Source: Candidatus Nomurabacteria bacterium (GTDB lineage Bacteria; Patescibacteriota; Patescibacteriia; UBA1558; GWA2-36-10). From it: a stretch of DNA of 64,000 bases. The position numbers were made by a program, and so were the translations under genes. The notes under the pieces are model-generated. The model saw only the letters and a program-made list of their open reading frames with translations. It searched no databases and was not told the origin of the DNA. Shown here in pieces: positions 7,277-60,737 of this stretch. The stretch covers positions 322,732 to 386,731 of the forward strand of contig JACKFO010000002.1 of the NCBI GenBank assembly GCA_020632415.1. Reading direction: 5' to 3'. How positions within the stretch are numbered: position 1 is the stretch's first letter; each line of letters opens with the position of its first letter.

Positions 7277-8563
7277 CTATTCTTTAATTATCTCTTTTGC
7301 ACGATCCAATTGTGGGTCTAAGTCATTGTTATAATCTTCAGTAGTGTATTCTATTTTTTCATCAGGCTCAACTCCCACATCGTCAATTGTTCTGCCTTTA
7401 GGAGTAATCCAATTAGCCACCGTTACTTTCAAGGCTGAACCATCTTTAAGCTCAAACAACTGTTGGACAGAACCCTTACCAAAAGTAGTTTGACCAATTA
7501 CCGTACCAAAACCATAGTCCTGTAAAGCGCCAGCCAAAATCTCCGCTGCTGAAGCCGATCCTTCATTAACTAAAATGACCATCTTATATTGACTCAAATC
7601 TAGTTCTTTTGGCGCTTTATAATCTTTACTATCTTTTTGATTTGAAAAAATTTCTCTGACCACCACTTGTCCATCTTGCAACCAAGAGCCGGCAATGTCC
7701 ACTGCTACATCCAAAAATCCACCAGGATTGTTTCTTAGATCCAAAATAATACCATCCGGATTATCTCGTAAAACTTGCTGAGCAATTTTAATAAAACGAC
7801 TGTCCGTGTCACTATTAAAGTGACTAATCTTAATTACTGCAAGATTATCTTCTAATTTATAAGTGACACTAGGAATAGCGATTTTATCACGCTTGATTTT
7901 AATTTCTTTTGGCGTATTTTCATCTTTAGACAAAACAGTCAAAACAAGCTCTGTTCCTTTGTCACCACGAATCAAATTAACCGCTCCGTCAACTGACAAA
8001 CTACTAGCATCTTGTTCATCAATGCCTAAAATCTTGTCCCCTGCTCTCAAGCCAGCAATTTCTGCTGGAGAATCTGGCAAGGGAGCGATAATCACCAAAG
8101 CGCCATTTTTACGACCAATCTCTGCACCGATTCCAAAAAAGCTACCATTTAATTCTTGAGTAAATTCATCAGTAACTTCTGGATTCAAAAAAATAGTATA
8201 AGGGTCATTAACCGCTGCCACCATACCAGAAATTGCTCCGTAGAATAAATCTGATTCTGAAATTTGATTTCGCTTAAAATAATATTGGTGTAAAGTTTCC
8301 CAAGCATCTTTGAATAAAGCTGGATCAATATTTTCTGTTCCAGAAAAAATGCCTAAAATTTCATCAGCAGTAGTTGCAAAAACGTTTTCCTGAGCGGTTT
8401 TATTATTTAAATTACTAGTAAAAACCCCTGCTCCAAAAGCAACTAAAATTAAAAAAAACAAAGCGTAAATTTTAATTACCCTTTTAAACAAATTTTTCTT
8501 CTTTTTCAAAACATCTTCAGTTTGCTCATTGGTAAACTGACTCTTATTTTCAAATTGATACAT
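7277..8563 (-). CDS. S41 family C-terminal processing peptidase with PDZ domain
   Basis: PDZ segment SPAEIAGLRAGDKILGID, catalytic region NEGSASAAEILAGALQD and TFGKGSVQ, N-terminal TM anchor. Confidence 0.85.
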   Translation of the reverse strand: MYQFENKSQFTNEQTEDVLKKKKNLFKRVIKIYALFFLILVAFGAGVFTSNLNNKTAQENVFATTADEILGIFSGTENIDPALFKDAWETLHQYYFKRNQISESDLFYGAISGMVAAVNDPYTIFLNPEVTDEFTQELNGSFFGIGAEIGRKNGALVIIAPLPDSPAEIAGLRAGDKILGIDEQDASSLSVDGAVNLIRGDKGTELVLTVLSKDENTPKEIKIKRDKIAIPSVTYKLEDNLAVIKISHFNSDTDSRFIKIAQQVLRDNPDGIILDLRNNPGGFLDVAVDIAGSWLQDGQVVVREIFSNQKDSKDYKAPKELDLSQYKMVILVNEGSASAAEILAGALQDYGFGTVIGQTTFGKGSVQQLFELKDGSALKVTVANWITPKGRTIDDVGVEPDEKIEYTTEDYNNDLDPQLDRAKEIIKE

Positions 8564-8569
8564 AATTTA

Positions 8570-9865
8570 TTAATCGTTTACTCTTTTTATCTTAGCGCCC
8601 AAAGCTGCTAATCTTTGATCTAAAAATTGATAACCACGATCGACTTGATAGATGTTATCGATCACACTTTCACCACGAGCAGATAAGGCAGCCAAAATTA
8701 AAGTCGCGCCTGCTCTCAAATCAAAACTACTCATTTCTTTACCAAATAAAGGAGAAGGGCCAATAACAATCACTCGGTGTGGATCAGAAACAATAATGTT
8801 AGCTCCCATTTTCTTTAGTTCTGCCACATATTTCATCCGACCATCATACATCCAGTCATGAATTAAGGTTGTGCCATGAGCCTGAGTCATCAAAGCAGTC
8901 ATCGGCTGAATTAAATCAGCAGCAAAACCAGGATAAGGCATGTCATGAATTTTTTCTACTGCTTTCAAATCCACTCTACCGTCAACTTTAATATTTGCCA
9001 ACTGATAATGTTTATTTGGCGATAAATCTAAATAATTAATTTCTATTTTTAAACCAACTTCTTTAAATTTTTCTAACTCCAAAGCCAAAAAATAAGGAGC
9101 AGTATTTAAAATAGTGATTTCAGATCTAGTGCAACCGGCCAAAGAAATAAAAGTTCCCGTCTCAATTGGATCCGGCATAATATGATATTCGCCACCGCCC
9201 AAAGACTTTGCGCCTTTGATCGTTAATTCGTGTGTGCCAATGCCTTGGATCTCTAAACCTAGAGTTTCCAAAAACCAACAAAGATCCTGAACACTTGGAT
9301 CAGAAGCAGCGATTCTTATTTTGATTTCTCCTTGATTGATCGCTGAAGCTAAAATAATATTTTCTGTACCAGTGACAGAAAATTCATCCATCACAATCTC
9401 TGTGTTGGCGGCTCGTTTTTTTTCTAAAATATAATATTTGCCATCAAACTCTACATCTACACCCAAACGAGCAAAAGCTTTAAAGTGGGTATCCATTGAA
9501 CGAGCGCCGATCTGACAACCACCGGGCGCTTTGGTTTTAATTTTACCAAAACGACCAACCATTGCCCCCATCAATAAAATTGAGGAGCGCATCGTACTCA
9601 TCAGGTCCATATCCAACTTTTCTGGATCAAGCTCAGCGGCATCAATAGTTAGACTATGTTTATCCAACCAAACAACTTTAACTCCCAAAGAAGTTAAAAT
9701 TTGAATCATTTTTTTCACATCCTCAATTAAAGGAACGTTGTGTAAAGTGATCTTTTCTTTTGACAAAACAGAAGCTGCTAAAATTGGTGTCGTAGCGTTT
9801 TTAAAACCAGCAACCTCGATTGTTCCTTTGAGCGCATTGCCTCCTTGAATAATAAATTTAGACAT
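8570..9865 (-). CDS. murA: UDP-N-acetylglucosamine 1-carboxyvinyltransferase
   Basis: 431 aa with active-site region PGGCQIGARSMDTH and EPSP-synthase-like fold motifs throughout. Confidence 0.93.
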   Translation of the reverse strand: MSKFIIQGGNALKGTIEVAGFKNATTPILAASVLSKEKITLHNVPLIEDVKKMIQILTSLGVKVVWLDKHSLTIDAAELDPEKLDMDLMSTMRSSILLMGAMVGRFGKIKTKAPGGCQIGARSMDTHFKAFARLGVDVEFDGKYYILEKKRAANTEIVMDEFSVTGTENIILASAINQGEIKIRIAASDPSVQDLCWFLETLGLEIQGIGTHELTIKGAKSLGGGEYHIMPDPIETGTFISLAGCTRSEITILNTAPYFLALELEKFKEVGLKIEINYLDLSPNKHYQLANIKVDGRVDLKAVEKIHDMPYPGFAADLIQPMTALMTQAHGTTLIHDWMYDGRMKYVAELKKMGANIIVSDPHRVIVIGPSPLFGKEMSSFDLRAGATLILAALSARGESVIDNIYQVDRGYQFLDQRLAALGAKIKRVND

Positions 9866-19132: not shown

Positions 19133-21688
19133 TTAATCAACTAATTGATAAGGCAACAAATCCGCTTCAAAGCGAGAAATGCTACTGCCAGTTGGATAAA
19201 CGGACAAATCCGTTTTAATCACCACGTCTTTCATTCTAAAATAATTAGCGCTAAAGGCTGCTAAATTAGAAAAAGGTCTTTTTCTTCCGTTTTCAATATA
19301 ATAAATCGTGTCATTATCAGGCTCTTTAGCTAAAATTCCGCTTGGCAATAGATTATAAATATCATCTCCTTTTTCATAAGTAGTAGCAAAATAACCAGGA
19401 ATTACATCTTGTACCAAACGAAACCAATTATCGCCATACAAATGTCTAGCCATTTCCTCTGAAGGGATATATCTTAAAAATCCATTTGGTTCAACTGCAT
19501 AAATTTTATTTGAATCCACAGTAGTAACCAATTTTATTCCCGGACGATAAGTTATCACTCCTCCATCTGGATATAAATCTAATTCTGCAACATCAACTTT
19601 TACTACACGATCAAAATTATCATACCAAGTATAGTAGGTTTTTGGATCTGGAAAAGCATATTTCTTACCATCTTGGCCAATATAATAAACAGTTGCGTCT
19701 TTGACTCCAGCTTGAGCAAGTAATAAACCCGAGTCAGCAAACTCTTGAATACCTAAAACTTGTCCCACAGAAACTTGAATTGAATCATTGACAATAGAAC
19801 TAGTTCCTCTTCTATTTTTGAATTGAGCATAAACCGTTCTTGTGCCATTACCAGCAAGCAAAGCCCAAGGAGTGGTAGTACTATAAGCTCGCCAAGCAAC
19901 ATTATCAAAATTAGAAAAATTACTAATTCTCATTTCCAAAGGAGCATAGGCAGAAGTCATGTTATTAGCAAATAGATTCAAAGTTACCACGCTACTATTA
20001 CTAGTTGCTGCGTTATTATTAATCAAAACTTGTGGATTGCGAGGATTGGAGCTAATTCCTCCTCCGCCGCCTCCTCCGCCGCCTCCTCCGCCGCCACCGG
20101 AAATAGCATTAACAGTAATTGTGCTGGTAGCAAAATCAGAATAAGCTAAACCATCAAAAGCACGATAAGTAAACTGATCGGCACCAACAAATCCACTTTC
20201 TGGTGAATAAGTAAATGAACCATCGTCATTTAAGGTCAATTGTCCATGACTAACATTTGTTCCTAGAACACTAGATAGATCGTGTGGACCTTGATCACTA
20301 TCACTGTCATTGGCTAAAACACCATCTCCAGCTGAAATATTTAACTGAACATTTGCATTTGTCTGATAGCTATCATTATTGGCGACTGGATTTTCGTTTA
20401 GATTTTCTCCAACTGCCAAAATTACTTTGGCAAGATTAGAATAAGCTAAACCATCAAAAGCACGGTAAGTAAAAGCATCTTTTCCTTCAAAATCTGTATC
20501 TGGTACGTATTTAAAATTACCATTTACACCCATGATCAAAACTCCATGTTCAACCCAATTTTCAACTTTAACAGTCATAGGCTCTGGACGATTGTCTGGA
20601 TCTTTATCATTGTCCAAAATACTTTCCGGAGAAAGAATGAATGTTTCATTTTTATCTAATTGATAAGCATCACCTTTAGCAATTGGTGAGCGATTAGAAC
20701 CGGTATCTTTAACAACAACCTTAACTGTTGCAATGTCAGAATAATCAAGACCATCAAAGGCTTGATACCTAAAATAAGCATTGCCAACATAACCCTTTTC
20801 TGGCTTATAAATAAAAGACCCATTATTATTTAATTCTAAATGTCCATGAGTCAAATCTTCATTACCCATATCCCACAAACGAGCTGTTAAATGCTGCGGA
20901 CCATCTTGATCTTGGTCATTTGCCAAAACTCCATTTAAACGATCAATAGTTAAAAGATTACCGGAAACAACTGAATATAAATCTCCTTTAGCAATTGGCT
21001 TTTGATTATCAACCGGATCATTTCCGCGGCCAATTTCTATTTTGATGATAATTTCTTCAGTGTCCGTACCATTTACTGCCTTTAATCTTCCAGAGAACTT
21101 ATAGGTTCCTTCTGGCCAATCACCACGTATCTTAAAACTTTTTGTATCATCTAAAGCATCCTTAAAAACCAAACCATTTTGACCATTGGCATAAAGATAA
21201 AATATCGGTGCTCGATCATAAATAATATGATGCATCGGCTCAGTCATGTCACCAAGATAACGTAAAAAAGTACTTGGATAATCAACTATTGCAAAAGGAT
21301 AGTCGCCACGCAATACTTCGACGTTAGTGGAGCTCTCAATAGAATTAATATAATAAATTTCTATTTCTTCTTTGGTATTTAATTGATAACCGTGATCTAA
21401 ATCGCCACGCAATCTTTGCCATTCACGACCATCAAGTGAAGAAGCCAGGGTTAAACTCTCCAAGGTCAATCTTTCATTTTGATAACCAAAGCCACCATAA
21501 GGAGAGGTGTTATTTGGTTTTTTTGATGCTGTGCTCGCTGAATCTTGCTTAGTATTTTGATTGATCAAAACTTTAGCGCTGAGATTAGACACGTCTTCAC
21601 TGATCATCGCCAAAGCTGGCAATGAATAACTAAAGCTACTGCTCAACAAAATACTGGAAATAGTAAAAATACTAATAAATTTTTTCAT
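19133..21688 (-). CDS. large secreted protein with four tandem Ig/cadherin-like repeats and a Gly14 tract
   Basis: Signal peptide. Four repeats of the pattern PIAKGD.Y....N..L.I....VL.ND.D.D...L......V.HG.L.LN.DGSF.Y.P...F.G.D.F.YRAFDGL.YS. GGGGGGGGGGGGGG linker, then a C-terminal domain. Confidence 0.65.
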   Translation of the reverse strand: MKKFISIFTISSILLSSSFSYSLPALAMISEDVSNLSAKVLINQNTKQDSASTASKKPNNTSPYGGFGYQNERLTLESLTLASSLDGREWQRLRGDLDHGYQLNTKEEIEIYYINSIESSTNVEVLRGDYPFAIVDYPSTFLRYLGDMTEPMHHIIYDRAPIFYLYANGQNGLVFKDALDDTKSFKIRGDWPEGTYKFSGRLKAVNGTDTEEIIIKIEIGRGNDPVDNQKPIAKGDLYSVVSGNLLTIDRLNGVLANDQDQDGPQHLTARLWDMGNEDLTHGHLELNNNGSFIYKPEKGYVGNAYFRYQAFDGLDYSDIATVKVVVKDTGSNRSPIAKGDAYQLDKNETFILSPESILDNDKDPDNRPEPMTVKVENWVEHGVLIMGVNGNFKYVPDTDFEGKDAFTYRAFDGLAYSNLAKVILAVGENLNENPVANNDSYQTNANVQLNISAGDGVLANDSDSDQGPHDLSSVLGTNVSHGQLTLNDDGSFTYSPESGFVGADQFTYRAFDGLAYSDFATSTITVNAISGGGGGGGGGGGGGGISSNPRNPQVLINNNAATSNSSVVTLNLFANNMTSAYAPLEMRISNFSNFDNVAWRAYSTTTPWALLAGNGTRTVYAQFKNRRGTSSIVNDSIQVSVGQVLGIQEFADSGLLLAQAGVKDATVYYIGQDGKKYAFPDPKTYYTWYDNFDRVVKVDVAELDLYPDGGVITYRPGIKLVTTVDSNKIYAVEPNGFLRYIPSEEMARHLYGDNWFRLVQDVIPGYFATTYEKGDDIYNLLPSGILAKEPDNDTIYYIENGRKRPFSNLAAFSANYFRMKDVVIKTDLSVYPTGSSISRFEADLLPYQLVD
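20058..20099. repeat. 12-nt tandem repeat CCTCCTCCGCCG x3 (+CCACCG) encoding the poly-Gly tract
   Basis: Three exact 12-nt units read directly at 20058-20093. In frame (4 codons per unit). Confidence 0.9.
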
Positions 21689-23466: not shown

Positions 23467-23508
23467 TAAAAAAGAAAGCGGTGATCACGTTAGACGCGAC
23501 CACCGCTT
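23467..23508 (-). terminator. terminator of cassette B1
   Basis: Minus strand AAGCGGTG-17 nt-CACCGCTT followed by TCTTTTTT. Confidence 0.5.
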
Positions 23509-23529
23509 GAGAACATCGAAACCAGAAGA

Positions 23530-24513
23530 TCAGGGACGCCAGTAGTAGCGCACAGCCGCGACTGCCTGCTCGAGACGACTGTCGTAGCCGACCTGGAAGC
23601 TCAAAGAGCCGATCAGCTCCCCAGAATTCTTCCAGCCAAGAAAAGCCTGCCAGGCTTCAGCTTGCTCACCGAAGTCAAATCCTGAGGTCAAGAAGAACTT
23701 CTGCTTTGCTCCCAGACGGAGAAAATCCCAGTTTCCCTTCAAGACGTAGAGATTGTCCGGAGCGATCCATCCGTCCGGATGGAAGCGATAGCTCCAGCCA
23801 CCGGCCAAAGCCAAAGACTGCCAGGGTCGAGTGTAGAGCGAGACGTTATGACCAATCTCTTCTTCCCAGCTCAAGTGAAGATCGAAAATGCTCCAGTAGC
23901 CATTGAGGTGGTAGTTGCCGACCCAAACATCACTATCCAGCATCGGAAAAGCGCTGAACAAACTATCCAGACCTCGTGCTGGCCATGTACGACGAGCGCC
24001 ATAGCCCAAAGCAGCAGAAGCGCCAAAAGGTCGACCTCCCAACTGATCATACCAAGCGACTTGCAAGGCTGCTCCTGAGATACTCCCGGTAAAAGGCAGC
24101 TCAGCGTCATTTGGTCGCAAGAGAGTTGCTTCGTAGGCCTGAGGAAAGCTTTCCAAAGCCAGGTTTCGATACTGTCCAGCGCGCAGACTGAAATTCCCAT
24201 TGGAATTTCGCCAATCGTGCTGAACAAAGGCCTCGCTCAAGAAAGCCTCAGCCTGATCACCGTAAGCAATCTGACCTTCAGCCTTGAACGAAAAAACCTT
24301 GTTTTGACCACTTGAAACCCAAGCTTGTCCTCCTAGAAGGCTGTATGACCAGCGGGCTTGCAAGCTATCTTCGAAGCTGGTATTCAAACCAGCGCCTCCA
24401 TAGAAGTCCAGCTGGAAACGTTCCACCTGATCATCACTGGAAGCAGCAGCAAAAGCTGTGGACTGGGTCCAGAGGATCAACAGACCCAACAGCCAAAAAC
24501 TCAAAGTTTTCAT
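23530..24513 (-). CDS. orphan secreted protein with outer-membrane beta-barrel-like sequence pattern (G+C-rich cassette B1)
   Basis: GGAGGA SD. Signal peptide MKTLSFWLLGLLILWTQSTAFA/AASS. Many short alternating hydrophobic/aromatic strands (FQLDFYGGAG, RWSYSLLGG, FSFKAEGQIAYG, LQVAWYDQ, SLSFQVGYD) and an aromatic C-terminus VRYYWRP. G/C-ending codons. Confidence 0.6.
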   Translation of the reverse strand: MKTLSFWLLGLLILWTQSTAFAAASSDDQVERFQLDFYGGAGLNTSFEDSLQARWSYSLLGGQAWVSSGQNKVFSFKAEGQIAYGDQAEAFLSEAFVQHDWRNSNGNFSLRAGQYRNLALESFPQAYEATLLRPNDAELPFTGSISGAALQVAWYDQLGGRPFGASAALGYGARRTWPARGLDSLFSAFPMLDSDVWVGNYHLNGYWSIFDLHLSWEEEIGHNVSLYTRPWQSLALAGGWSYRFHPDGWIAPDNLYVLKGNWDFLRLGAKQKFFLTSGFDFGEQAEAWQAFLGWKNSGELIGSLSFQVGYDSRLEQAVAAVRYYWRP

Positions 24514-24620
24514 CGCCTTTTCCTCCGCGTTGCTTGATTTTGTTGTTATTTTCTGATTTCGTTTGTGTCAAAGATCGGGAGAACTTCATGTTTAAAAAAA
24601 CATGAAATATCCAACTGTAA

Positions 24621-24649
24621 ACCATACACCAAAATCTATTATTTGTCAA
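24621..24649 (-). promoter_or_regulatory. promoter of cassette B1
   Basis: Minus strand TTGACA (24644-24649), 17 nt, TATGGT (24621-24626). A 5' UTR of about 110 nt contains the palindrome at 24585-24606. Confidence 0.55.
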
Positions 24650-24679
24650 GTCTAGCTTATTTTAGCCCAAAAATAACTC

Positions 24680-24708
24680 TTGACAAATATTTTAAAATAG
24701 TATATAAT
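24680..24708 (+). promoter_or_regulatory. promoter of cassette B2
   Basis: TTGACA 24680-24685, 17-nt spacer, TATAAT 24703-24708. Confidence 0.65.
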
Positions 24709-24753
24709 ACTTTGTTACGTACACTGACAACCAAAACCACACGGAGGAACACC

Positions 24754-25500
24754 ATGAACCGCATTCACAGCTTCTGCCTGCTGATGCTCCTGTGCATCAG
24801 CGCCGCCTTCGCCGACGCCTACGAAGAACCCATCAAGAACACCAACCCCGACACCACGGCCACCACGGCGTCCTGGGAAGCGAACACGCTTCCGATGGAA
24901 CCCTGGCTGATCAAGTGGGACGCCAACGGCCAGCCGGTCAAGACGCATCGTCTGAGCTTCGAAATTTCCGGCAGCGACACCCTGTACTACAAGGGTGACT
25001 GCCTGATCGAAGATCAGCGCGTCCGCTGGTATCCGAAGTCCCTGCAGGACAACCGGATGCACTCGGCCTACTGGACCGCTCGTCGCAGCATGTACGCGGC
25101 ACTGCTCGTCGCCGGCTACCAAGCGCGCGAAGCCGACTCGCTCTGCCGCACGCTACAACCCGTGATCGATGGCCAGAAGGACAGTCGTCCCCTGCTCAAC
25201 CAGATCATGGCCGCCGCCCCGAACATCCACAAGCTGAACATGCTGGAACATGAGCTCCTGGCAATGCAACAGCAGATGGTCACCGTCGACATGCTCAACG
25301 AGTTCGCCGGAGACATCGACGCCGCCCTGTCCGAACACGTCAACTTCGCCGAAACGGTGGATGACTTCCTCAATCAGACACGAGGAAAGAAGTGGGGACG
25401 CGCCAAACGTGCTCACTCCCTCTTCCTGACATCGGCGCCGCCGAGCGAGGAACGATGCCTTCCGTCAACGGAAGAGATGCCCATGCCGAGCAAGTTCTGA
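24754..25500 (+). CDS. orphan secreted protein, 248 aa (G+C-rich cassette B2)
   Basis: GGAGGA 5 nt upstream of ATG 24754. Signal peptide MNRIHSFCLLMLLCISAAFA/DAYEE. Strongly G/C-ending codons. The track start at 24565 runs through the promoter and is rejected. Confidence 0.6.
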   Translation: MNRIHSFCLLMLLCISAAFADAYEEPIKNTNPDTTATTASWEANTLPMEPWLIKWDANGQPVKTHRLSFEISGSDTLYYKGDCLIEDQRVRWYPKSLQDNRMHSAYWTARRSMYAALLVAGYQAREADSLCRTLQPVIDGQKDSRPLLNQIMAAAPNIHKLNMLEHELLAMQQQMVTVDMLNEFAGDIDAALSEHVNFAETVDDFLNQTRGKKWGRAKRAHSLFLTSAPPSEERCLPSTEEMPMPSKF

Positions 25501-25529
25501 CCTCCTCCGTGAAGCGCAATTTCAGCGCA

Positions 25530-25571
25530 AGCCCGCCCCAAACTACAGCAGTAGCAAAGGCGGGCTTTTTC
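25530..25571 (+). terminator. terminator of cassette B2
   Basis: AGCCCGCC-21 nt-GGCGGGCT followed by TTTTT. The large loop lowers confidence. Confidence 0.45.
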
Positions 25572-25575
25572 TTTG

Positions 25576-25609
25576 ATTAAAAAACACCTCGCAGCTTAGC
25601 TGCGAGGTG
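25576..25609 (-). terminator. terminator of the giant-protein operon
   Basis: Minus strand CACCTCGCAGC-loop-GCTGCGAGGTG followed by TTTTTT. Confidence 0.8.
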
Positions 25610-25622
25610 AAATTTTATTTAT

Positions 25623-28600
25623 TTATTTTTTATACAAATTGTCTAAATCTACTTGATTACGAACTTCAATTGTTGGATCACCCAAAGGATCTAATCTAAA
25701 TAATTTACCGGCTTCTTTAACAAAGGTATTTCCTTCAGTATCAGTAAAAGTAGCGCCATCATTCATTTGTGATAATTGATCAAAACCACGGTGTACTTCA
25801 CCAGCTATTTCTGTGCTTGTCTGAGCTGCCTCAGCAACATTCTCGCTAACTGGAACTTGTTCAGGTATCGCCTCAGCTGACACTGGCTCTACCGGCTCTT
25901 CAATTGGCGTCTCAAAACTTTCTGGTTCCATAGCCCCAGCTGTCTCCCTAGCTTTCCTAGCTTGATCCAGACTTTCACTTAAACCAGACGCTTTTGGTTC
26001 TGGAATATTATCTGCTACTGGCGGCAAATTTTCAGACGCAGCTTTTGCCGCTGTTTTTACTGGCTCTGATAAAACTGAATTATCCAACCAAGATTCTAAA
26101 ACTTTTTCTTTCAAAGTCCAAGTATTGCCACTCAAGTCGTCTAACATATATTCTTCTTGACCAAATAAATGTTTTTTTACTAAATGCACAAAAGCATAAA
26201 ATTGACGACCATTTTCATCTTTGACTAAACGCGCCTCCCAAGCTTTACCAGGCAAAGAATCGCTAGTAGCTACTTTATCAAAAGCGGAAGTGTATCTTTC
26301 TACTGTTTCCAAATCATTTAGATCAGAAATCTTTACATTTGGCGCTTGTTCTACATATTTCAAAAATATCGCTGCTTTATTACTATCTGGTGTAAAAGAA
26401 TTTGGATAATAATCCTCCAAAAATTGCCTTTGTACCTCTGGAGAACTTTCAAAAACATGATTAACTAAAGCGTCAATTTCTTGTGGATTATTTTCTACTG
26501 CTCTTAAGAGCTCTTCTGAATAAGGAGTCTTACCAGCTAAAAATCCATCCAAATTAGCGGTAGCTACTTCTGCTGAGCCTGTTGTTTCTGGAACAAAATT
26601 ATGTCCACTATGATCTACCATTTTACTCAAATCATCTACTGTAACATCATGATTGTCTGCAAGACGATAAATTGTTTGACCATTGATTTCTACCTGCTCA
26701 ACTGGCTGATGATCAAAAGACCAATTATGCACTTCTCCATCATGAGACAACCAATCCGTACCATGTGCTCTAACTTCAGCAGCGATTTGGTCAACGCTTT
26801 CCGTACTGATTCTCACTCCATGTTTTGCTGCCTCGGCAATTGCTTCATTATTGGCAACAATATTTTGCATTTGCTCAGCAGTCAAAGCGCCTGATTTTTG
26901 CGCAGCTTCACTAATGTTTTCTGGATTAAATAAATTACCAAAATTTAACTTCGTGCCAAGCTTTAGCTGATCAACATCACCGTCAATACCAAAAGCTTTT
27001 GGATCAGCGACAATTTTATCTTTAAAATAATCAATAAAATAAGTACGCTGAGCTTCATTTAGATTGTTCCAATTTGGCACTCTAGCTCTTAACTGATCTT
27101 CTGTTAGATTCCAAACATTATCTCCTTTACTAACTACGGCTTCAACACTAATTCCTCCTTGATCTGGGATATTCTCTGCCACACCATGTGGTACTGGAGC
27201 GTCTGATTCTAAAGTTGGTCTTAAATAAGCTGTTTCTGGAGCGCCAGGATCAGCAACTTCCTGAGCGTGCTCTGCTGCGCCTTGCACCTGATCTGCGCCA
27301 TCAGCGTGACTTAATTTATCCAAAACTCTTGAACCAGCTATTGCTCCAACTGTCAAACCTAAAACCGCTGAGACGCCATATCGTCTCATAGCCTTCATAC
27401 GTGATTTATCTTGTGCGCTAGATAAAGTCTCTACCGTCTTCTGTTCTGTTTTTAAAGTCTCGCTGACAATATCAATTTTAACAGAATTAATTCTTTCATT
27501 ACCATTAACTATAGGCTCTCCTATAATTTCATCGAGAGCGATTTTATCTTGGAATTCCGACTTTAATCTTCGAAAATACTCTTCTTGAATCAAGTTCACA
27601 AAAGCTGCTTGCTCATCACCAAAACGACCAGCCTCAGCTAAACCAACTCTTTTATCTAAACTCAAAATTCTTAATCGCGCTAATTCTTTAGCTAATTCCT
27701 CTGTTGGATATTGCTCTTGATTTCCTAACACCTCTCTCCATTCAACGATATCTTCGTCTGTAATTTTTCCTGCTTCTGATTTTTTGCTTTTGAATCCAAG
27801 ATTTTTCATCTTGTCAATCAAACCTTTTTGTCCGCCCCATTCACTTCTTTTATCAATTGTTGCTTCAGCAAACATAAAAGTGCCCGTAGAAGACATCACG
27901 CCACGTGCTGTCAAAATACCAGCAACAACTCCAGTTGTACCACCGCTAAACAACAAACTAGCGCCAAACAAACCAACACCTAAACCTAATCTAATTTTTC
28001 CGGTTTTACGCCAAAATTCTTTAAATTTTCCAATAAAATTTTTATCCAAACCACTGGCTTCAGCGTCAATCGCCACTTCTTCGGCTTGTAACAAAGAAAT
28101 GTATTCGCTGGCCAATATGTTTTTAAGCTGTTCTATCGTAATCTTACCCTCAGTAAAATCTTGTAATAATTCTCCTTTTTTATTTTCCAAACTATCATGA
28201 ACATGCTTGTCTTTGGCCTCTTGGTAAGCTTGAGCTATTTTTTCAAATTTGCTTTTACCTCCACGAACAACCTGGCCTCTTTTATATAAAGCTTTTACAA
28301 AGGCTGAACGCAACTCATCTAAATTACCAGGAACAACATCTTCATAAGACTCATTTTCAATCTCCTCTGAAATTCCTCCGTCAATCACCTCCTCAACGCC
28401 TTCTTCAGTGCGATGGCTTTCTTCTGAATCTTCTTCAGTGGCGCCTTCTGCTGCTTTTTCAATTTCTTGACTAAAACGAGCAATAATATCATCCAACTTA
28501 TCTTCTAATTCCTCTCTTGGCAAACTTCTGTCTAAACTACTGATTTCATCAAGAAACTTAGCTTGAATTTCTGGATGTTTTTGACCGTCTTCATAATGAT

Positions 28601-30722
28601 TAATATATTCTTCATAGTCTTCAAATAATTTAACCATTTCATCATTTACCGGCTGTTTTTCTTGATCATTATCTCGTAATAATTCTAATTTCTGATCCAA
28701 AGCCTGATTAATCTCTCCAATTCTTTGATTTAGTTCTGCGATAGTTAAATTTTGATCAAGGGCTTTTATTTCGGCAATTTTAGCCGCAACTAAACCCGCT
28801 GCTTGTTCAGCTTTATTTCCATAATCATCAGCTCTCAATTCAGCAAATGTCTGATCTAATTCTTTAGCTGCTTTAGTAATTAATTTGGTTTGTTCATTAT
28901 TAGATTCAACTTGAGTTTCTACTTGTTCGGCTCCCTCTGCCACTTGACCATCTGCAGAATCCGATGCCGCTGTAGTGGCAGCTTCTCTATTTCTGTGATC
29001 TAAAGCTTCCTGAATAGTATAAACTTTTTCATTTGTTGTATTTGTATCCATTCCACGATCATTAAAAACAAAATCTGGATATGCAGTGGCAATCTTTTGT
29101 TCTAATTCGCTTAACTCTTCTCCCTCGATAATTTTGATCATTACTCTTCTAACCGCATTAATTAGTTCAACTTGAATCACATAATCTGACATGCTTTCGA
29201 TCGGATCACCAAACTTCCAACCACCCGGATTAGTTAATTGATCATTGACAATTTTAGCAAATAATCTTTCATCATAAGCAAATCTCATGCGATCATAAAC
29301 CCCTGCGGTTGGTACCGAATCTGGAGCTTCTTCTTCCGCTGCTTCAGGAGCATCATCGATATTTGAATCTACTTCTTTAGGTTCTAATTTAGCAACTAAA
29401 TCTGGAGACAAAAGCTTCCAAATAACAAATGGCTCTTGGCCTTCAATTTTGACTTCAAATTTTACTTTTTTCCAACCCTTATATGCGTCTTTGATTTCTG
29501 CTGAAGTGATCAAAGCTGCTGGGCGTACTTCATTGCGCAAACCCAACTGTAACTCTCCAGAAAGCTCGGTTAATTCATTACCCATTAATTGATTTACAGC
29601 GTCTACTATACCATCAAGATGCTCTTTGGCATCAAACTCAACCTGACCATCACCCATGATCATCAAATCGACTACTTTTGCTGCAAAGTCTTTTGGCATT
29701 AAAAAACTTTCCATCCCAGGTAGACCCTTAACAAAAGCTGAATCTACTTTAACTAATTCGTCAGTACCAAATTCTTCCATCGCACCTTCTTTTTCTGGAT
29801 CAAAATTTTCTATGCCTTGAAATTTAAACTCTGTTGGTATATTTATAATCACCTCCATCATTGCTCCGCTGCGCTCACCCAAACCTCTTTCAAATTCTTC
29901 AAGAGAAAAATCTAGCCTCCTTAAATCCTCTGGAACTTCGACAACAGGACTAACAGGCTTTTGACCAACGATTTTTGATGCTTCTTGATCAACAGGATTA
30001 GTACCAGTAACAGCACTATCTGGACGCAAGGCTGCTAAAAACTTCGGAAATTTATCAACCACATCTTCTATTTCTGCTGCTTTCAATCTTTTTAAACCAG
30101 ACAAATTACTTGCTAGCTTATCTTGTGCTTTTTTAAGAATTTCCTCATCAACACCCGAAGCTCTAAATTTTCTAAAATCACCACGCAAAATAGGCTCTGC
30201 TGCTTTTTCAATCGCAGCAAGAAATTCACGGCCGATATTTTGCATTTTTTCTTCAACGGCAGCTGAATCATCAAAAAAATGAGGATCATTAATTTGCTTC
30301 AATAAATCCTCTCTCTTGCTTTCAGCTAATAAATTGCTGTCTTTAATAGCCCTTTCTAATCTATCAAGCTCCTCTGCTAAGCGCTCCTGATCTGCATCAA
30401 AATCAGCTTCTTTTCCAAATACAGCATGTGCTAAATTATCAACTAATTCTTTAGTGGATTTGCCCGCTTGCTCTGCTTCAAGCCGCAAGCTAGGATCTTT
30501 AACTTCTGCTTTAAACTCATCAACATTTTGATCAACTTTTTGCTCAGTTTCTTGCGCAACTTGCAAAACTTGATCTGGTCGAGCTTCTGTCTCTGCTCCT
30601 GCTGTTAAATTTTCTTGACGATCTTGAGCTAAAAGCGCATCAATTCTTTCTGGATCAATTGCGCCAGGAATATTCTCTCCATTCCTTTTTTCTCTTAAAT
30701 GCCTGGATTGTTTATCACCCAT
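25623..30722 (-). CDS. giant orphan protein, 1699 aa, acidic coiled-coil-rich with central hydrophobic segments
   Basis: Single uninterrupted frame in backbone-type A+T-rich DNA. Hydrophobic stretches LGLGVGLFGASLLFSGGTTGVVAGIL and YGVSAVLGLTVGAIAG. No family recognised with confidence. Confidence 0.8.
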   Translation of the reverse strand: MGDKQSRHLREKRNGENIPGAIDPERIDALLAQDRQENLTAGAETEARPDQVLQVAQETEQKVDQNVDEFKAEVKDPSLRLEAEQAGKSTKELVDNLAHAVFGKEADFDADQERLAEELDRLERAIKDSNLLAESKREDLLKQINDPHFFDDSAAVEEKMQNIGREFLAAIEKAAEPILRGDFRKFRASGVDEEILKKAQDKLASNLSGLKRLKAAEIEDVVDKFPKFLAALRPDSAVTGTNPVDQEASKIVGQKPVSPVVEVPEDLRRLDFSLEEFERGLGERSGAMMEVIINIPTEFKFQGIENFDPEKEGAMEEFGTDELVKVDSAFVKGLPGMESFLMPKDFAAKVVDLMIMGDGQVEFDAKEHLDGIVDAVNQLMGNELTELSGELQLGLRNEVRPAALITSAEIKDAYKGWKKVKFEVKIEGQEPFVIWKLLSPDLVAKLEPKEVDSNIDDAPEAAEEEAPDSVPTAGVYDRMRFAYDERLFAKIVNDQLTNPGGWKFGDPIESMSDYVIQVELINAVRRVMIKIIEGEELSELEQKIATAYPDFVFNDRGMDTNTTNEKVYTIQEALDHRNREAATTAASDSADGQVAEGAEQVETQVESNNEQTKLITKAAKELDQTFAELRADDYGNKAEQAAGLVAAKIAEIKALDQNLTIAELNQRIGEINQALDQKLELLRDNDQEKQPVNDEMVKLFEDYEEYINHYEDGQKHPEIQAKFLDEISSLDRSLPREELEDKLDDIIARFSQEIEKAAEGATEEDSEESHRTEEGVEEVIDGGISEEIENESYEDVVPGNLDELRSAFVKALYKRGQVVRGGKSKFEKIAQAYQEAKDKHVHDSLENKKGELLQDFTEGKITIEQLKNILASEYISLLQAEEVAIDAEASGLDKNFIGKFKEFWRKTGKIRLGLGVGLFGASLLFSGGTTGVVAGILTARGVMSSTGTFMFAEATIDKRSEWGGQKGLIDKMKNLGFKSKKSEAGKITDEDIVEWREVLGNQEQYPTEELAKELARLRILSLDKRVGLAEAGRFGDEQAAFVNLIQEEYFRRLKSEFQDKIALDEIIGEPIVNGNERINSVKIDIVSETLKTEQKTVETLSSAQDKSRMKAMRRYGVSAVLGLTVGAIAGSRVLDKLSHADGADQVQGAAEHAQEVADPGAPETAYLRPTLESDAPVPHGVAENIPDQGGISVEAVVSKGDNVWNLTEDQLRARVPNWNNLNEAQRTYFIDYFKDKIVADPKAFGIDGDVDQLKLGTKLNFGNLFNPENISEAAQKSGALTAEQMQNIVANNEAIAEAAKHGVRISTESVDQIAAEVRAHGTDWLSHDGEVHNWSFDHQPVEQVEINGQTIYRLADNHDVTVDDLSKMVDHSGHNFVPETTGSAEVATANLDGFLAGKTPYSEELLRAVENNPQEIDALVNHVFESSPEVQRQFLEDYYPNSFTPDSNKAAIFLKYVEQAPNVKISDLNDLETVERYTSAFDKVATSDSLPGKAWEARLVKDENGRQFYAFVHLVKKHLFGQEEYMLDDLSGNTWTLKEKVLESWLDNSVLSEPVKTAAKAASENLPPVADNIPEPKASGLSESLDQARKARETAGAMEPESFETPIEEPVEPVSAEAIPEQVPVSENVAEAAQTSTEIAGEVHRGFDQLSQMNDGATFTDTEGNTFVKEAGKLFRLDPLGDPTIEVRNQVDLDNLYKK

Positions 30723-31338: not shown

Positions 31339-32688
31339 CTAGTCGACGTTCACTGTGCCAACAGCGCCACCGCCTCTGACCTTGATATTGGAGTTTTTCT
31401 TCTCAGCCAAATCTCCAATCTCTTGCAGACAACGCAGACGCTGTTCATAGGTTGCTGTTTCGGGGTTCAGGCCTAAAGCCGCCAAAGCAGCATCAATCTC
31501 TGCTGTGAAAGCCTCGCCATCTGCCTTGCGAAGACGAATCTTACGCTTGGATTCAGACTCAGCGGCGGCCTCAGCATTTTGAGCTTTTTCGATCTCTGGA
31601 TCTCTAGTGGGATCACCAAAGTCCAAAGTATCGAAAGCATGCCCAACGGCCTCCAGCAACTTGCCATTAAGTTCGGTTTGCTTCGAATGATCAAAGGTTA
31701 CGTCCAAACCCTTGACCTGATCGAAACTCATAGAGCTCATGACACTTATCACATCATTGACAATTACTGTGCCAGCTACCTCAACCGAAGTCGACTGATC
31801 CTCAGACGACATCCGCAGAAAACGAGAAGGATGCTGACAAGTAATCACGCCAACTCGAAGATCAATATTGGCAGTAGAGTTGTCTCCTAGCGGCACAAAA
31901 CCAGTCTTGTATTTGCGTTCTATGGCCTCATAACGCAACAGAGTGACGCTATAGAGAAACATCCAAACTGGAATTCCTACTCGGCCCAGATACCAAGGCA
32001 AGATTGGCGCATTTATGTCACTATCACGATGATTGCCGTGATTAGATCCATAAAAATACCAATCGCCAAATTTCTTCCTGATCGGACCTCTCGGAATCAG
32101 AAATGGCCTATTCATGAACTTCGGAACCCAGCGCTCGGTCACTTCCGGCACCATGATCGAACCAATACTCCAGAAAATTGGTAAAGCCAAGAGAAAGACT
32201 GGCTGCCAGATACCAACCATAGCGCAGGTGAAAAAGCCGACAGCAGAAATTACTCCGAACCCGTAAGGTCTGGCCGGAGGCGGAGCTGGTTTTTGACCCT
32301 TGACTACATCACGCTTATCAATGAAAAAGCTGCCGGTCCAAGCTCGGCGGAAAGCGATCACGCCGAAGCCTAGCAAAACAAGGCTGGCGATCAGCTTCCA
32401 CCAAGGGAATTCTCCGTTGAAATTAAGCCAGGAGAAAAGCTGCCAGTTCCACGGCTTCAGCAACAAAGCTGCGTACCAAAGAACAAGTCCAAGCTGCAAA
32501 GCGATCCGAGTCCTCTTATCCTTAGATGTTTTAGGCTTCTTATCCTTGTCCAGATCAACGAGCCAGCTATTCAAGCTCCAGTAGATACTGAGCGGCAAGG
32601 CAAAGAAGATCAGGAAAATAGCGATGCCGTGAACAAATTGTGGGTCTTTCCATCCCACACGGCTGATGATTTTCTCCAAGGCTTCCAT
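31339..32688 (-). CDS. orphan polytopic membrane protein with soluble C-terminal domain, 449 aa (G+C-elevated cassette C)
   Basis: AAGGAG SD 7 nt from the ATG. About 6-7 Trp/Phe-rich hydrophobic helices in the first 250 aa, a PAPPPARP linker, and a charged Ala/Glu-rich C-terminus. G+C is visibly above the flanks. Confidence 0.65.
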   Translation of the reverse strand: MEALEKIISRVGWKDPQFVHGIAIFLIFFALPLSIYWSLNSWLVDLDKDKKPKTSKDKRTRIALQLGLVLWYAALLLKPWNWQLFSWLNFNGEFPWWKLIASLVLLGFGVIAFRRAWTGSFFIDKRDVVKGQKPAPPPARPYGFGVISAVGFFTCAMVGIWQPVFLLALPIFWSIGSIMVPEVTERWVPKFMNRPFLIPRGPIRKKFGDWYFYGSNHGNHRDSDINAPILPWYLGRVGIPVWMFLYSVTLLRYEAIERKYKTGFVPLGDNSTANIDLRVGVITCQHPSRFLRMSSEDQSTSVEVAGTVIVNDVISVMSSMSFDQVKGLDVTFDHSKQTELNGKLLEAVGHAFDTLDFGDPTRDPEIEKAQNAEAAAESESKRKIRLRKADGEAFTAEIDAALAALGLNPETATYEQRLRCLQEIGDLAEKKNSNIKVRGGGAVGTVNVD

Positions 32689-32786: not shown

Positions 32787-32815
32787 ATTATATCACATTT
32801 TTACATTTTTGTCAA
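32787..32815 (-). promoter_or_regulatory. promoter of cassette C
   Basis: Minus strand TTGACA (32810-32815), 17 nt, TGaTATAAT extended -10 (32787-32792). 5' UTR of about 100 nt. Confidence 0.65.
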
Positions 32816-49609: not shown

Positions 49610-49733
49610 ATTTTTATATAAATTATTGACGTTTCATTATAACATATTTAAATTTTAAGGCAAATCATCTCTGATATGATACCAAAAAATTACATAATTC
49701 AACTTTTGCGGATAATAACATATTTTATATATT

Positions 49734-49775
49734 CTGTCAATATGTATTGACAGAAAAGTAAATATATGATATAAA
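49734..49775 (+). promoter_or_regulatory. promoter of cassette E with 20-bp perfect palindrome over the -35 box
   Basis: CTGTCAATA-TG-TATTGACAG at 49734-49753. TTGACA 49747-49752, 17 nt, TGaTATAAA (-10 at 49770-49775). The palindrome also creates a TTGACA on the opposite strand. Confidence 0.6.
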
Positions 49776-49893: not shown

Positions 49894-49962
49894 ATGTTCA
49901 AAAAGTGGTTTCCTAATCAAAGCAACCAGAGAGAGTCGACGTCTTCAACGCGAGTTGAGTAA
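49894..49962 (+). CDS. possible upstream micro-ORF, 22 aa (MFKKWFPNQSNQRESTSSTRVE)
   Basis: AGGAG 9 nt upstream of the ATG. It ends 17 nt before the main cassette E ORF. Confidence 0.3.
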   Translation: MFKKWFPNQSNQRESTSSTRVE

Positions 49963-49979
49963 GCCTTAAGGAGGGAACA

Positions 49980-50429
49980 ATGAGTCCCAAGACCAAATTT
50001 TACTGCTGGCTGGCGGCGATGACCGTCATCACTCTGACGACTCTTTTTGTTGTCAACGCAGTGAGTGGTAATCCCACATTAGCCATATCCGCCGCATTCG
50101 GCGCGTTCGCTATCACCGTAATAGTCGCGCTCGCTGTCGCCACATCATCTGTCGTGCTCGCCGGACTCATCGCACTCCTGATCGCCAGCGGAGGCGGAGT
50201 GGTCGCGTGCGCTGTCGCACTCCTGATCACCGCCAGAGCCGGAGTGGTCGCGAACGTCGACGCATTCGCCGGACTCGCCGCCGCATCCTTAGCATTCGCC
50301 ATATCCGTCGTAATTATCTTCATCCTTTCTGCTTATAAGAGCACTCTTTCCAAGAGGCATATCCTTCTTTCAATGACGGTGGTATCCATTGTCATCGCCA
50401 CCCCGATGCTCTACCTCGCACTGCAGTAG
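49980..50429 (+). CDS. orphan Ala/Val/Ile-rich polytopic membrane protein, 149 aa (G+C-rich cassette E)
   Basis: AAGGAGGG SD. Almost entirely hydrophobic sequence with an internal duplicated segment. The antisense ORF 50000..50323 is an artefact of high G+C. Confidence 0.55.
   Translation: MSPKTKFYCWLAAMTVITLTTLFVVNAVSGNPTLAISAAFGAFAITVIVALAVATSSVVLAGLIALLIASGGGVVACAVALLITARAGVVANVDAFAGLAAASLAFAISVVIIFILSAYKSTLSKRHILLSMTVVSIVIATPMLYLALQ
50170..50252. repeat. internal tandem duplication (about 45-nt period) inside the cassette E ORF
   Basis: TCGCACTCCTGATC at 50170 and 50215; GGAGTGGTCGCG at 50196 and 50241. Gives peptide IALLIASGGGVVAC / ALLITARAGVVAN. Confidence 0.8.
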
Positions 50430-54015: not shown

Positions 54016-54558
54016 ATGCAAGCCTTTCATGAGTGGTTCGTCCACGAACTCGAGCAACGGCAGAACACGATCGACAATCCCTGTCCGATCGAAGTCGAAG
54101 TCAATGAATCGGGTACGGTACTCGGTACCCTACCCGACAACCTGAAGCCCCTCTTCTTCCTGATGCTCGACCTGATCGATGAGCGCAACGAGTCCGCCAC
54201 CGCGCTCCACGACTGGATCGTGGAACACCCCGGATTCCACCCGGCACACCCCGAAGATGCCAAGCCGGAACTGATCGGGGAATTCCAGGAGAAGAAGATC
54301 AATCACCGAGTCGCCTGCGACAAGCTGAAGACGATCACGTCCTACTTCTGGAGCAGCATCCACCACATCTTCCCCGACAGCCACAACCACAACAAGATGG
54401 AGGTCTGCAAGGACTGGCAGATCGTCTGCGGAGATGATGAAGGTGACATCAAGATCGATATCATCGGCATCGGCGGCATTCCCTCCGACTTCGTCGGTGG
54501 CTCCACCGTCGATCCCTTCGGCGACCTCCTCGGCAGCTTCTTCCGTCGAGGACACTGA
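54016..54558 (+). CDS. orphan acidic His-rich cytoplasmic protein, 180 aa (G+C-rich cassette F)
   Basis: GGAG 5 nt upstream of ATG 54016 (MQAFHEWFVHELEQ...). G/C-ending codons. Three antisense track ORFs here are artefacts of high G+C. Confidence 0.55.
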   Translation: MQAFHEWFVHELEQRQNTIDNPCPIEVEVNESGTVLGTLPDNLKPLFFLMLDLIDERNESATALHDWIVEHPGFHPAHPEDAKPELIGEFQEKKINHRVACDKLKTITSYFWSSIHHIFPDSHNHNKMEVCKDWQIVCGDDEGDIKIDIIGIGGIPSDFVGGSTVDPFGDLLGSFFRRGH

Positions 54559-56935: not shown

Positions 56936-56966
56936 CGGCTCGCGCCACGCGCGAGCCGCTTTTTTT
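56936..56966 (+). terminator. terminator of G1
   Basis: CGGCTCGCGC-CAC-GCGCGAGCCG followed by CTTTTTTT. 39-nt block nearly identical to the G2 terminator. Confidence 0.85.
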
Positions 56967-57247: not shown

Positions 57248-57278
57248 CGGCTCGCGCCACGCGCGAGCCGCTTTTTTT
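57248..57278 (+). terminator. terminator of G2
   Basis: Same CGGCTCGCGC-CAC-GCGCGAGCCG + T-run as G1 (one mismatch over 39 nt including flanks). Confidence 0.85.
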
Positions 57279-60260: not shown

Positions 60261-60737
60261 ATGAATTGGCGAAAAATTGCACTTCTGTGCCTACTTCTTG
60301 CTTTGCCGATGTGGATGCTGATCCGTTCTATGCTGCCTTCGCAGTCAGTTATGGAACAGCTCCAGGAGATCGCCGATCGAACTCCCATTCACTTCGCTTT
60401 GTTGGTCGATGGACAGAGAATCGAGTATTTCGGCTTTGCCATCGATACCAGCACAGCAGCGGATACGAGTTTCGTCGAAAATCTCTACTTCTACGATCAA
60501 GTCGTGATCTGCAACATTCCAGGAGAGAACCAGTACCTCGAAGTACTCAAGGACACCCTGGATACGATCGACCCTCTGGGCACAGTCAAAGATCACGCTC
60601 CATTGGTCGGAGGCGACTACATCATCGAAGCCTACGATGCTTGGACGGATTCCCTCAAGTTCAGAGCGCGAATTCGCGCCGAACACATTGACGGAGAACC
60701 GTACATCTTCGATGATCAGAACCTTGTCAACAACTGA
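60261..60737 (+). CDS. orphan secreted or membrane-anchored protein, 158 aa (G+C-rich cassette H)
   Basis: GGAGGA SD 6 nt from ATG 60261. N-terminal hydrophobic segment MNWRKIALLCLLLALPMWML. G/C-ending codons. Overlapping track ORFs 60221..60691(+) and 60345..60746(-) are rejected. Confidence 0.55.
   Translation: MNWRKIALLCLLLALPMWMLIRSMLPSQSVMEQLQEIADRTPIHFALLVDGQRIEYFGFAIDTSTAADTSFVENLYFYDQVVICNIPGENQYLEVLKDTLDTIDPLGTVKDHAPLVGGDYIIEAYDAWTDSLKFRARIRAEHIDGEPYIFDDQNLVNN

Follow-up and report, generated by a model that had tools for sequence, protein, structure and literature searches.

Barrels of the porin fold typify cells with two membranes, and building them is believed to require the beta-barrel assembly machinery (BAM). 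The described systems closest to the locus reported here are the general porins, the OmpM/SlpA-type barrel proteins, the neisserial porin PorB and, at the level of the transcript, the ompA mRNA of Escherichia coli; they are compared with it in detail at the end. Loss of the outer membrane is attributed to the bacteria of the candidate phyla radiation (CPR) (PMC10160955); those members that have been described are treated as monoderm, and envelope architecture has been observed in few CPR (PMC8871954). We found no report in the literature of porin-like proteins or of G+C-rich gene cassettes in CPR. Here we analyse a 64-kb stretch of DNA (the window) from a genome deposited at NCBI as Candidatus Nomurabacteria bacterium, and focus on a divergent pair of G+C-rich genes at 23467-25571 (tags H6761_01720 and H6761_01725, on an 842-kb contig), encoding a predicted beta-barrel protein of 327 residues (the barrel) and a predicted secreted protein of 248 residues (the partner). 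With moderate confidence, based on modelling, we assign the first of these to a porin-fold family that is new in sequence and belongs to a presumably monoderm lineage.

The backbone of the window has a G+C content of approximately 36% and includes housekeeping genes (those for ArgRS, a class II aminoacyl-tRNA synthetase, CTP synthase, DnaB and a P-type ATPase). Two blocks within 23467-25571 reach 50-64% G+C; they are separated by an AT-rich stretch of about 240 bp, and the compositional borders of the gene pair are sharp. The barrel gene (23530..24513, minus strand) has 52% G+C and the partner gene (24754..25500, plus strand) 61%, compared to approximately 34-38% in the flanks. The locus is not an assembly chimera, since an independent assembly (the Logan assembly of SRR12358676) has 0 mismatches in 14,448 bases across the cassette and both flanks, and the same architecture was found in five other samples. 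No paralogs of either gene were detected within the window. Both are real coding genes under purifying selection: identity between orthologs decreases from the second to the first and the third codon position, and the ratio of non-synonymous to synonymous substitution rates (dN/dS) is 0.12-0.24 for the barrel gene and 0.4-0.6 for the partner gene. These results bear out nearly all of the sequence features given in an earlier reading of the same DNA made from its letters alone (the sequence-only reading), which had described two divergent G+C-rich open reading frames (ORFs) at these positions in a CPR/Patescibacteria-type backbone; its back-to-back promoters, its perfect palindrome upstream of the larger gene, its AFA-type signal peptides and the outer-membrane-barrel texture that it saw in the larger product were also recovered, as detailed below.

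The barrel protein starts with a putative signal peptide (residues 1-22, n-h-c layout, cleavage after AFA; assigned by rules and by conservation in the homologs) and, like the partner, has no second hydrophobic segment. The mature protein contains 10% Gly, 17% Phe+Tyr+Trp, 2% Lys, 2% Ile and no Cys, the share of Lys and Ile being very low for a genome of 36% G+C; it has no alpha-helical membrane segment and shows beta-type hydrophobic periodicity (z = 3.2 above shuffles). Structure prediction with AlphaFold2, using an alignment of 8 sequences (five close homologs and three distant relatives from an exhaustive profile search), gave a model with 16 strands, joined on one side by short turns of 2-6 residues (predicted local distance difference test, pLDDT, 73.2; predicted template-modelling score, pTM, 0.69). 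A Foldseek search of this model against the PDB returned 152 matches at E <= 1e-3 (best E = 2e-8), led by general porins: OmpU, OmpC, OmpF, OmpK36, Omp32, PorB and OmpM1, with template-modelling (TM) scores of 0.53-0.58. The longest loop of the model (residues 117-143, 27 residues) lies between strands 5 and 6, the same strand position as L3, the pore-constricting loop of porins, and contains the invariant residues R133, D136 and F141. In the last strand the residues alternate as V.L.Y.W, and RP, RPE or RPGH comes after it. Taken as predictions, these data make us moderately confident that the 327-residue protein folds as a 16-stranded porin-like beta-barrel.

Relatives of the barrel were searched among 5.8 billion clustered proteins and 1.84 billion representatives (the latter by profile, with no word filter). 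About a dozen were found in all, every one on an AT-rich contig, and those with named sources come from Nomurabacteria, Parcubacteria or Patescibacteria; the 1.84 billion representatives gave 6 matches, one of them spurious, and a further word-indexed search with a wider profile yielded no additional relative. No diderm homolog of the barrel was present in either collection, and scans of viral contigs revealed no relative of the barrel or the partner. The loci compared were L002, L003/L004 and L010, from other metagenomes; L005, a 107-kb scaffold; L009, from the Patescibacteria bin JAGORJ01; and L012, from the Parcubacteria genome GCA_000991205.1. Wherever a relative has enough flanking DNA, the slot is that of the window, with the gene order DUF5663, giant membrane protein, partner, barrel, CAP, Big_9/cadherin adhesin, Dus, CorA, DivIC. 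Identity among these genomes is 77-83% for Dus, 45-60% for CAP and 25-52% for the barrel, and the synonymous sites of the barrel and partner genes are saturated between orthologs (proportion of synonymous differences, pS, 0.6-0.75). In the comparison of L009 with L010 the identities are 90% for CAP (synonymous divergence, dS, 0.59), 67% for the barrel (dS 1.46) and 49% for the partner (dS 1.25); thus the gene pair diverges faster than its flank, silent sites included. Judged from these sequences, the barrel family is clade-specific, vertically placed and fast-evolving, and we consider both the porin fold and vertical inheritance within the clade likely. An ancient transfer into the ancestor of the clade, with no donor visible, is possible.

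The partner is predicted to be a secreted soluble protein, its putative signal peptide being cleaved after AFA. Its N-terminal half is conserved (motifs PWL.KW, RVRWYPK and DSRP), and the C-terminal part consists of a helical or coiled-coil-like stretch followed by a basic Pro-rich tail, with a terminal Phe in the window and in two of the three relatives whose C-terminus is complete. Only the copy of the window itself was present in the protein database, and the orthologs came from translated loci: they are clear in L003/L004, L009 and L010 (30-44% identity); in L012 there is a motif-level ortholog that was missed by BLAST; and in L002 the first partner codons are found at the contig edge (the partner gene is cut by the contig end in L003/L004 and L002). 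The partner is therefore not the orphan described in the sequence-only reading, and it is present and divergent from the barrel gene in 6 of the 7 informative relatives. No Pfam, NCBIfam, PHROGs or PADLOC family was assigned to it (PHROGs and PADLOC gave no match for the barrel either), and its PDB profile search gave only chance coiled-coil matches (E > 0.7).

Two individual relatives deserve mention. The most distant syntenic homolog of the barrel, in L005 (10001-11518, P0011), carries an unrelated N-terminal extension of 245 residues with a duplicated motif (DQQSLRDAVS.NT), and its gene has the promoter TTGACT-17-TATAAT; that this extension is a fused partner was considered and rejected (hhalign probability of 0.9%). 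The L012 copy of the barrel (8001-8900, P0009, 299 residues, in the GW2011 Parcubacteria genome) is probably truncated or frameshifted at its C-terminus, as judged from its sequence next to P0012 (341 residues, same 90% cluster).

The intergenic region contains the signals of two strongly promoted transcription units. The partner promoter (24680..24708, plus strand) is TTGACA-17-TATAAT (12/12 positions of the consensus), the barrel promoter (24621..24649, minus strand) is TTGACA-17-TATGGT (10/12); the divergent -35 boxes have 30 bp between them. Perfect consensus promoters number 4 in the window, compared to 0.08 expected. Five relatives share approximately 35 nt of the partner promoter almost without change; their barrel promoter has an unvarying -35 box and a nearly unvarying -10 box (TATGGT in the window, TATGAT in the others). 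The spacer between the -35 boxes (24650-24679) varies in length and usually holds a short inverted repeat: TTATTTT..AAAATAA in the window, CCTAT..ATAGG in L003 and GCCCG..CGGGC in L012. The barrel ribosome-binding site (GGAGGAA, 24520..24526, minus strand) lies 6 nt before the ATG and is exact in the window, L002 and L003, with a GGGG-type variant in L009 and L010; a GGAGGAA site was also read from the sequence before the partner gene (24743..24749, plus strand). Each gene is followed by its own strong intrinsic terminator: a 15-bp G+C stem with a U-run to approximately 23466 for the barrel (23476..23508, minus strand; -25.1 kcal/mol, z = -5.8 against shuffles), and a 9-bp G+C stem around a small inner hairpin, with a U-run, for the partner (25529..25576, plus strand; -26.9 kcal/mol, z = -2.9).

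The 5' untranslated region (UTR) of the barrel mRNA, about 100 nt long with a predicted transcript start near 24614, contains the palindrome TTCATGTTT-AAAA-AAACATGAA (24585..24606, minus strand; perfect, 9+4+9), near the 5' end of the transcript, and a TTGACA-like box (24566..24571, minus strand; TTTGACAA-type motif) which is semi-conserved in the relatives, L012 included. The palindrome folds as an 11-bp stem. The relatives have a stem-loop at the same distance after the barrel -10 box, made of other sequences (TTCATGTTT/AAACATGAA in the window, CCACC/GGTGG in L002, TGCCT/AGGCA in L003 and L009), and in each case it is the dominant 5' structure on folding. The structure is kept without the sequence, and an RNA element is consequently favoured over a sequence-specific operator; between the two roles proposed for the palindrome in the sequence-only reading, the RNA hairpin is thus the better supported and the operator the less likely. 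An Rfam scan of the window detected tRNAs only. The stem-loop probably stabilises the barrel mRNA.

The explanation that we favour, with a probability of roughly 0.5, is that of a vertically inherited two-gene unit of one Nomurabacteria clade, in which the barrel acts as a pore in a foreign membrane and the partner is its secreted companion. The pair sits in a conserved cluster of cell-surface genes (giant membrane protein, CAP-domain membrane protein, Big_9/cadherin adhesin). Two near-consensus sigma-70 promoters would give two monocistronic mRNAs, each with a GGAGG ribosome-binding site and its own terminator, and the stem-loop at the start of the barrel mRNA would stabilise that transcript. 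The barrel protein would be exported by Sec and would form a water-filled pore in a membrane other than its own cytoplasmic membrane; the most plausible target would be the outer membrane of the host at the attachment site of the episymbiont, where the pore would give access to host solutes. This last step, the action in the host outer membrane, is put forward tentatively and with low confidence. For the partner, the role of a secreted cofactor or chaperone is a guess. A pore in a foreign membrane is suggested because CPR supposedly have no outer membrane, few genomes contain the family, and the barrel evolves much faster than its neighbours.

Several results weigh against the explanation that we favour. 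The structure is a prediction from 8 sequences; with only the five close homologs AlphaFold2 gave a pLDDT of 43 and weak Foldseek matches. None of the 8 family members matched Pfam or NCBIfam, even at E <= 10, and profile searches of the PDB sequences gave no match for the barrel. The barrel C-terminus, YYWRP, is not the canonical terminal-aromatic beta-signal, a Trp being at the end in just 2 of the 8 family members. The loops of the long-loop side (residues 47-51, 117-143 and 244-253 of the window barrel in alignment A4) are conserved at 0.60-0.72 and the short turns at 0.30-0.57, the reverse of what is seen in surface-exposed porins under immune or phage pressure; L2 and L4, on the long-loop side, are exceptions, at 0.46-0.53. 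The partner gene is missing from L005. The view of BamA, Lpt and lipopolysaccharide (LPS) genes is limited to 64 kb of the 842-kb genome (7.6%). Finally, we know of no mechanism by which a monomeric 16-stranded barrel could enter a foreign outer membrane without BAM.

One alternative is that the protein is not a pore but a soluble or wall-bound beta-rich surface protein, forced into a barrel by AlphaFold on a shallow alignment. The alignment of 8 sequences, the low score of the five-sequence run and the lack of a sequence family backing the fold fit this alternative, as do the 37 residues with pLDDT below 50 in the 8-sequence run and the scores of 56-65 of the other four models. It is made unlikely by the even number of strands, the alternation of hydrophobic and polar faces, and a composition like that of outer-membrane proteins (no Cys, abundant Gly and aromatics, very low Lys and Ile).

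The barrel could instead be an offensive pore that kills or lyses the host or a competitor, rather than a stable nutrient conduit. The structural evidence for this alternative is the same as for the feeding pore that we favour, the fast evolution of the pair relative to its flanks (in L009/L010, CAP 90%, barrel 67% and partner 49%) fits an arms race, and the partner could act in the manner of an antitoxin or chaperone. Known beta-pore-forming toxins, however, are built as oligomers from one or two hairpins per subunit, whereas the model shows a single-chain 16-stranded barrel; no toxin or defence family was matched; and a dN/dS of 0.12-0.24 indicates mainly purifying selection. We judge an offensive function to be improbable.

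A further alternative is a cryptic outer layer around the cells of the clade themselves, whether an outer membrane (vestigial or re-invented) or membrane vesicles, with the barrel as its resident porin. The protein resembles a classical porin in its layout, with its signal peptide, its 16 strands, its short turns and its L3-like loop; the strong promoter is as for an abundant envelope protein, and the envelope has been seen in few CPR (PMC8871954). A private outer-membrane biogenesis system is nevertheless unlikely because the barrel family is confined to a handful of genomes, and a whole system of this kind is not expected in so narrow a clade; the genome has only 842 kb, and CPR are reported to lack an outer membrane (PMC10160955). 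The sequence-only reading had described no BAM, Lpt, Lol or LPS genes in the window; our scan gave no BamA-like protein, and no match to a BAM, Lpt or LPS family, among the window proteins scanned (64 kb of 842 kb). We therefore give this alternative little credit.

The least expected feature of the gene pair was found in its codons. The G+C content at third codon positions (GC3) is 0.54 in the barrel gene and 0.81 in the partner gene, compared to 0.22-0.32 in the backbone genes of the window. Across the window, L002, L003/L004, L009, L011 and L012 the GC3 of the barrel gene is 0.53-0.65 and that of the flanking genes 0.21-0.31, and the partner gene has 0.66-0.81 in the window, L003/L004, L009 and L012; in L005 the barrel gene has 0.39 and the flanking genes 0.16-0.27. 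The codon preferences of the cassette genes are inverted relative to the backbone: the TTC fraction is 0.67 in the cassette genes and 0.09 in the backbone, AAG is 0.79 and 0.18, and CTG+CTC is 0.56 and 0.04. Since silent sites are saturated and yet GC3 is high in nearly all the relatives, the G+C-rich codon style must be under active maintenance rather than a residue of transfer. Ordinary translational selection for highly expressed genes was rejected as the cause, the GC3 of the ribosomal protein bL9 gene being 0.22. The recent gain of the cassette from a Gram-negative donor, which the sequence-only reading had put forward and which would make the high G+C (52-61%, GC3 0.54-0.81, in a 36% G+C genome), the sharp borders and the diderm-type fold an un-ameliorated donor signature, is essentially refuted, since no diderm homolog was found in the protein collections and no relative in viral contigs, the genes occupy a fixed slot, not a patchy one, in every relative with enough flanking DNA (genomes with a well conserved Dus), their composition is kept at GC3 0.53-0.81 in nearly all lineages despite saturated silent sites, and the AT-rich promoters and UTRs are conserved and native in style.

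The same package recurs elsewhere in the window. Four more ORFs, at 31339-32688 (minus strand), 49980-50429 (plus strand), 54016-54558 (plus strand) and 60261-60737 (plus strand), each have a near-consensus promoter, a GGAGG site, G+C-rich codons (GC3 0.52-0.67) and a terminator with a G+C stem. Three of the four perfect consensus promoters drive G+C-rich cassettes and the fourth drives tRNA-Lys; besides that of the partner gene, perfect TTGACA-17-TATAAT sequences are found at 32787 (minus strand) and 60183 (plus strand). None of the four additional ORFs could be assigned confidently to a family, the 449-residue product having a weak SPFH/Band_7 match below the Pfam cutoff. Orthologs of the 449-residue gene are also G+C-enriched (GC3 of 0.52 in L012, and of 0.38 in L005 compared to 0.19-0.27 in its flanks).

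Three causes of the codon style can be offered as ideas: GC-biased gene conversion with frequent allele exchange, which fits the higher dS of the cassette; selection on mRNA properties; and codon-gated translation. A preprint (bioRxiv 10.64898/2026.06.21.733656) reports that Patescibacteria take in RNA from their G+C-rich hosts and that their codon usage is complementary to that of these hosts; by the measure used there, the cassettes are written in a host-like codon style. A maintained second codon dialect may be more novel than the barrel itself. The boldest version of this idea is that the clade plants its own sequence-novel 16-stranded porin, with a helper, in the outer membrane of the host as a BAM-free feeding channel, and that a regulon for interaction with the host unites the barrel, the partner and four or more further cassettes, all in a host-like, G+C-rich codon dialect kept by selection, codon choice being the sensor of attachment. 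A possible reason for such a dialect is that these mRNAs are translated efficiently only during the import of host-derived RNA or tRNA. We regard this proposal as highly doubtful.

Further features were observed around the additional cassettes and the neighbours of the gene pair. The G+C-rich ORF encoding a multi-pass membrane protein of 149 residues is preceded by a 22-codon upstream ORF, MFKKWFPNQSNQRESTSSTRVE (49895-49963, plus strand), with its own AGGAG site, which may encode a leader peptide; a perfect 10-bp palindrome, TTCTGTCAAT-ATGT-ATTGACAGAA (49732-49755), holds the TTGACA -35 box of the same cassette, in an operator-like placement. A G+C hairpin beginning CGGCTCGCG occurs twice in perfect form (56936-56958 and 57248-57270, approximately 310 bp apart), in a region of approximately 41% G+C between tRNA-Lys and dnaB. 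The giant protein beside the pair (25623-30722, minus strand, in the window; 5648-9316 in L005, 42-4634 in L009 and 1255-6777 in L012) has 1,200-1,840 residues and is found in all the relatives; its N-terminal half is acidic and rich in coiled coils, membrane helices lie at its centre, it matched no Pfam family, and its last 25 residues or so are highly conserved (FTK..GK.FR.DP.G....EVRNQ.DLDNLY.K). The Big_9/cadherin adhesin (19133-21688, minus strand) has an unbroken run of 14 glycines after its Ig-like repeats; the run has approximately 11 in relatives (L009).

If the structural prediction holds, two consequences can be considered. Some CPR could have an unrecognised outer layer, which would bear on the loss and gain of outer membranes in Terrabacteria; or a single-membraned episymbiont could export a single-chain barrel into the membrane of another cell, which, if true, would represent a novel route for exploiting a host as well as a natural case of BAM-independent insertion. 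A maintained G+C-rich codon style that outlasts the saturation of silent sites is not predicted by standard models of amelioration or translational selection, and the codon pattern could point to genes that are linked in function, in organisms where most genes have no annotation. If the dialect proposal was true, it would extend the host-RNA uptake reported in the preprint cited above (bioRxiv 10.64898/2026.06.21.733656).

Comparison with known systems starts with the transcript. The mRNA stabiliser of E. coli ompA resembles the barrel 5' UTR in its length, in the stem-loop near the 5' end and in belonging to an abundant envelope-protein gene; it differs in that the window stem-loop has no sequence relation to it and that the window has no Rfam match of this kind. 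Neisseria PorB, which reaches host mitochondrial membranes, is a precedent for a bacterial porin-fold barrel in the membrane of another cell; it differs in being assembled by BAM in its own outer membrane and in reaching the host via vesicles, a route for which we know of no equivalent in monoderms. The OmpM/SlpA-type proteins (Veillonella OmpM1, Deinococcus SlpA, Thermotoga Omp-beta) share with the barrel protein a porin-type barrel in a Terrabacteria-related lineage, but they belong to diderm organisms with BamA and a real outer membrane, and the barrel protein lacks the SLH or coiled-coil domain that tethers them.

The nearest comparison is with the general porins (OmpF, OmpC, OmpU, Omp-Pst1, PorB, Omp32, OprP). 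The protein described here differs from them in several respects: it has no sequence match to Pfam (Porin_1, Porin_4, Porin_O_P), NCBIfam or the PDB at E = 10; its chain ends in YYWRP, whereas theirs end in Phe or Trp; it comes from a group held to lack both an outer membrane and BAM, and from a family limited to few CPR genomes; and its long-side loops are more conserved than its turns. The likeness lies in a mature size of approximately 300 residues behind a Sec signal peptide; in a composition rich in Gly and aromatics and free of Cys; in the short turns of one barrel side and in the position of the long, conserved loop (residues 117-143) that joins strands 5 and 6, where L3 lies in porins; and, in the model, in 16 predicted antiparallel strands that form a closed barrel.

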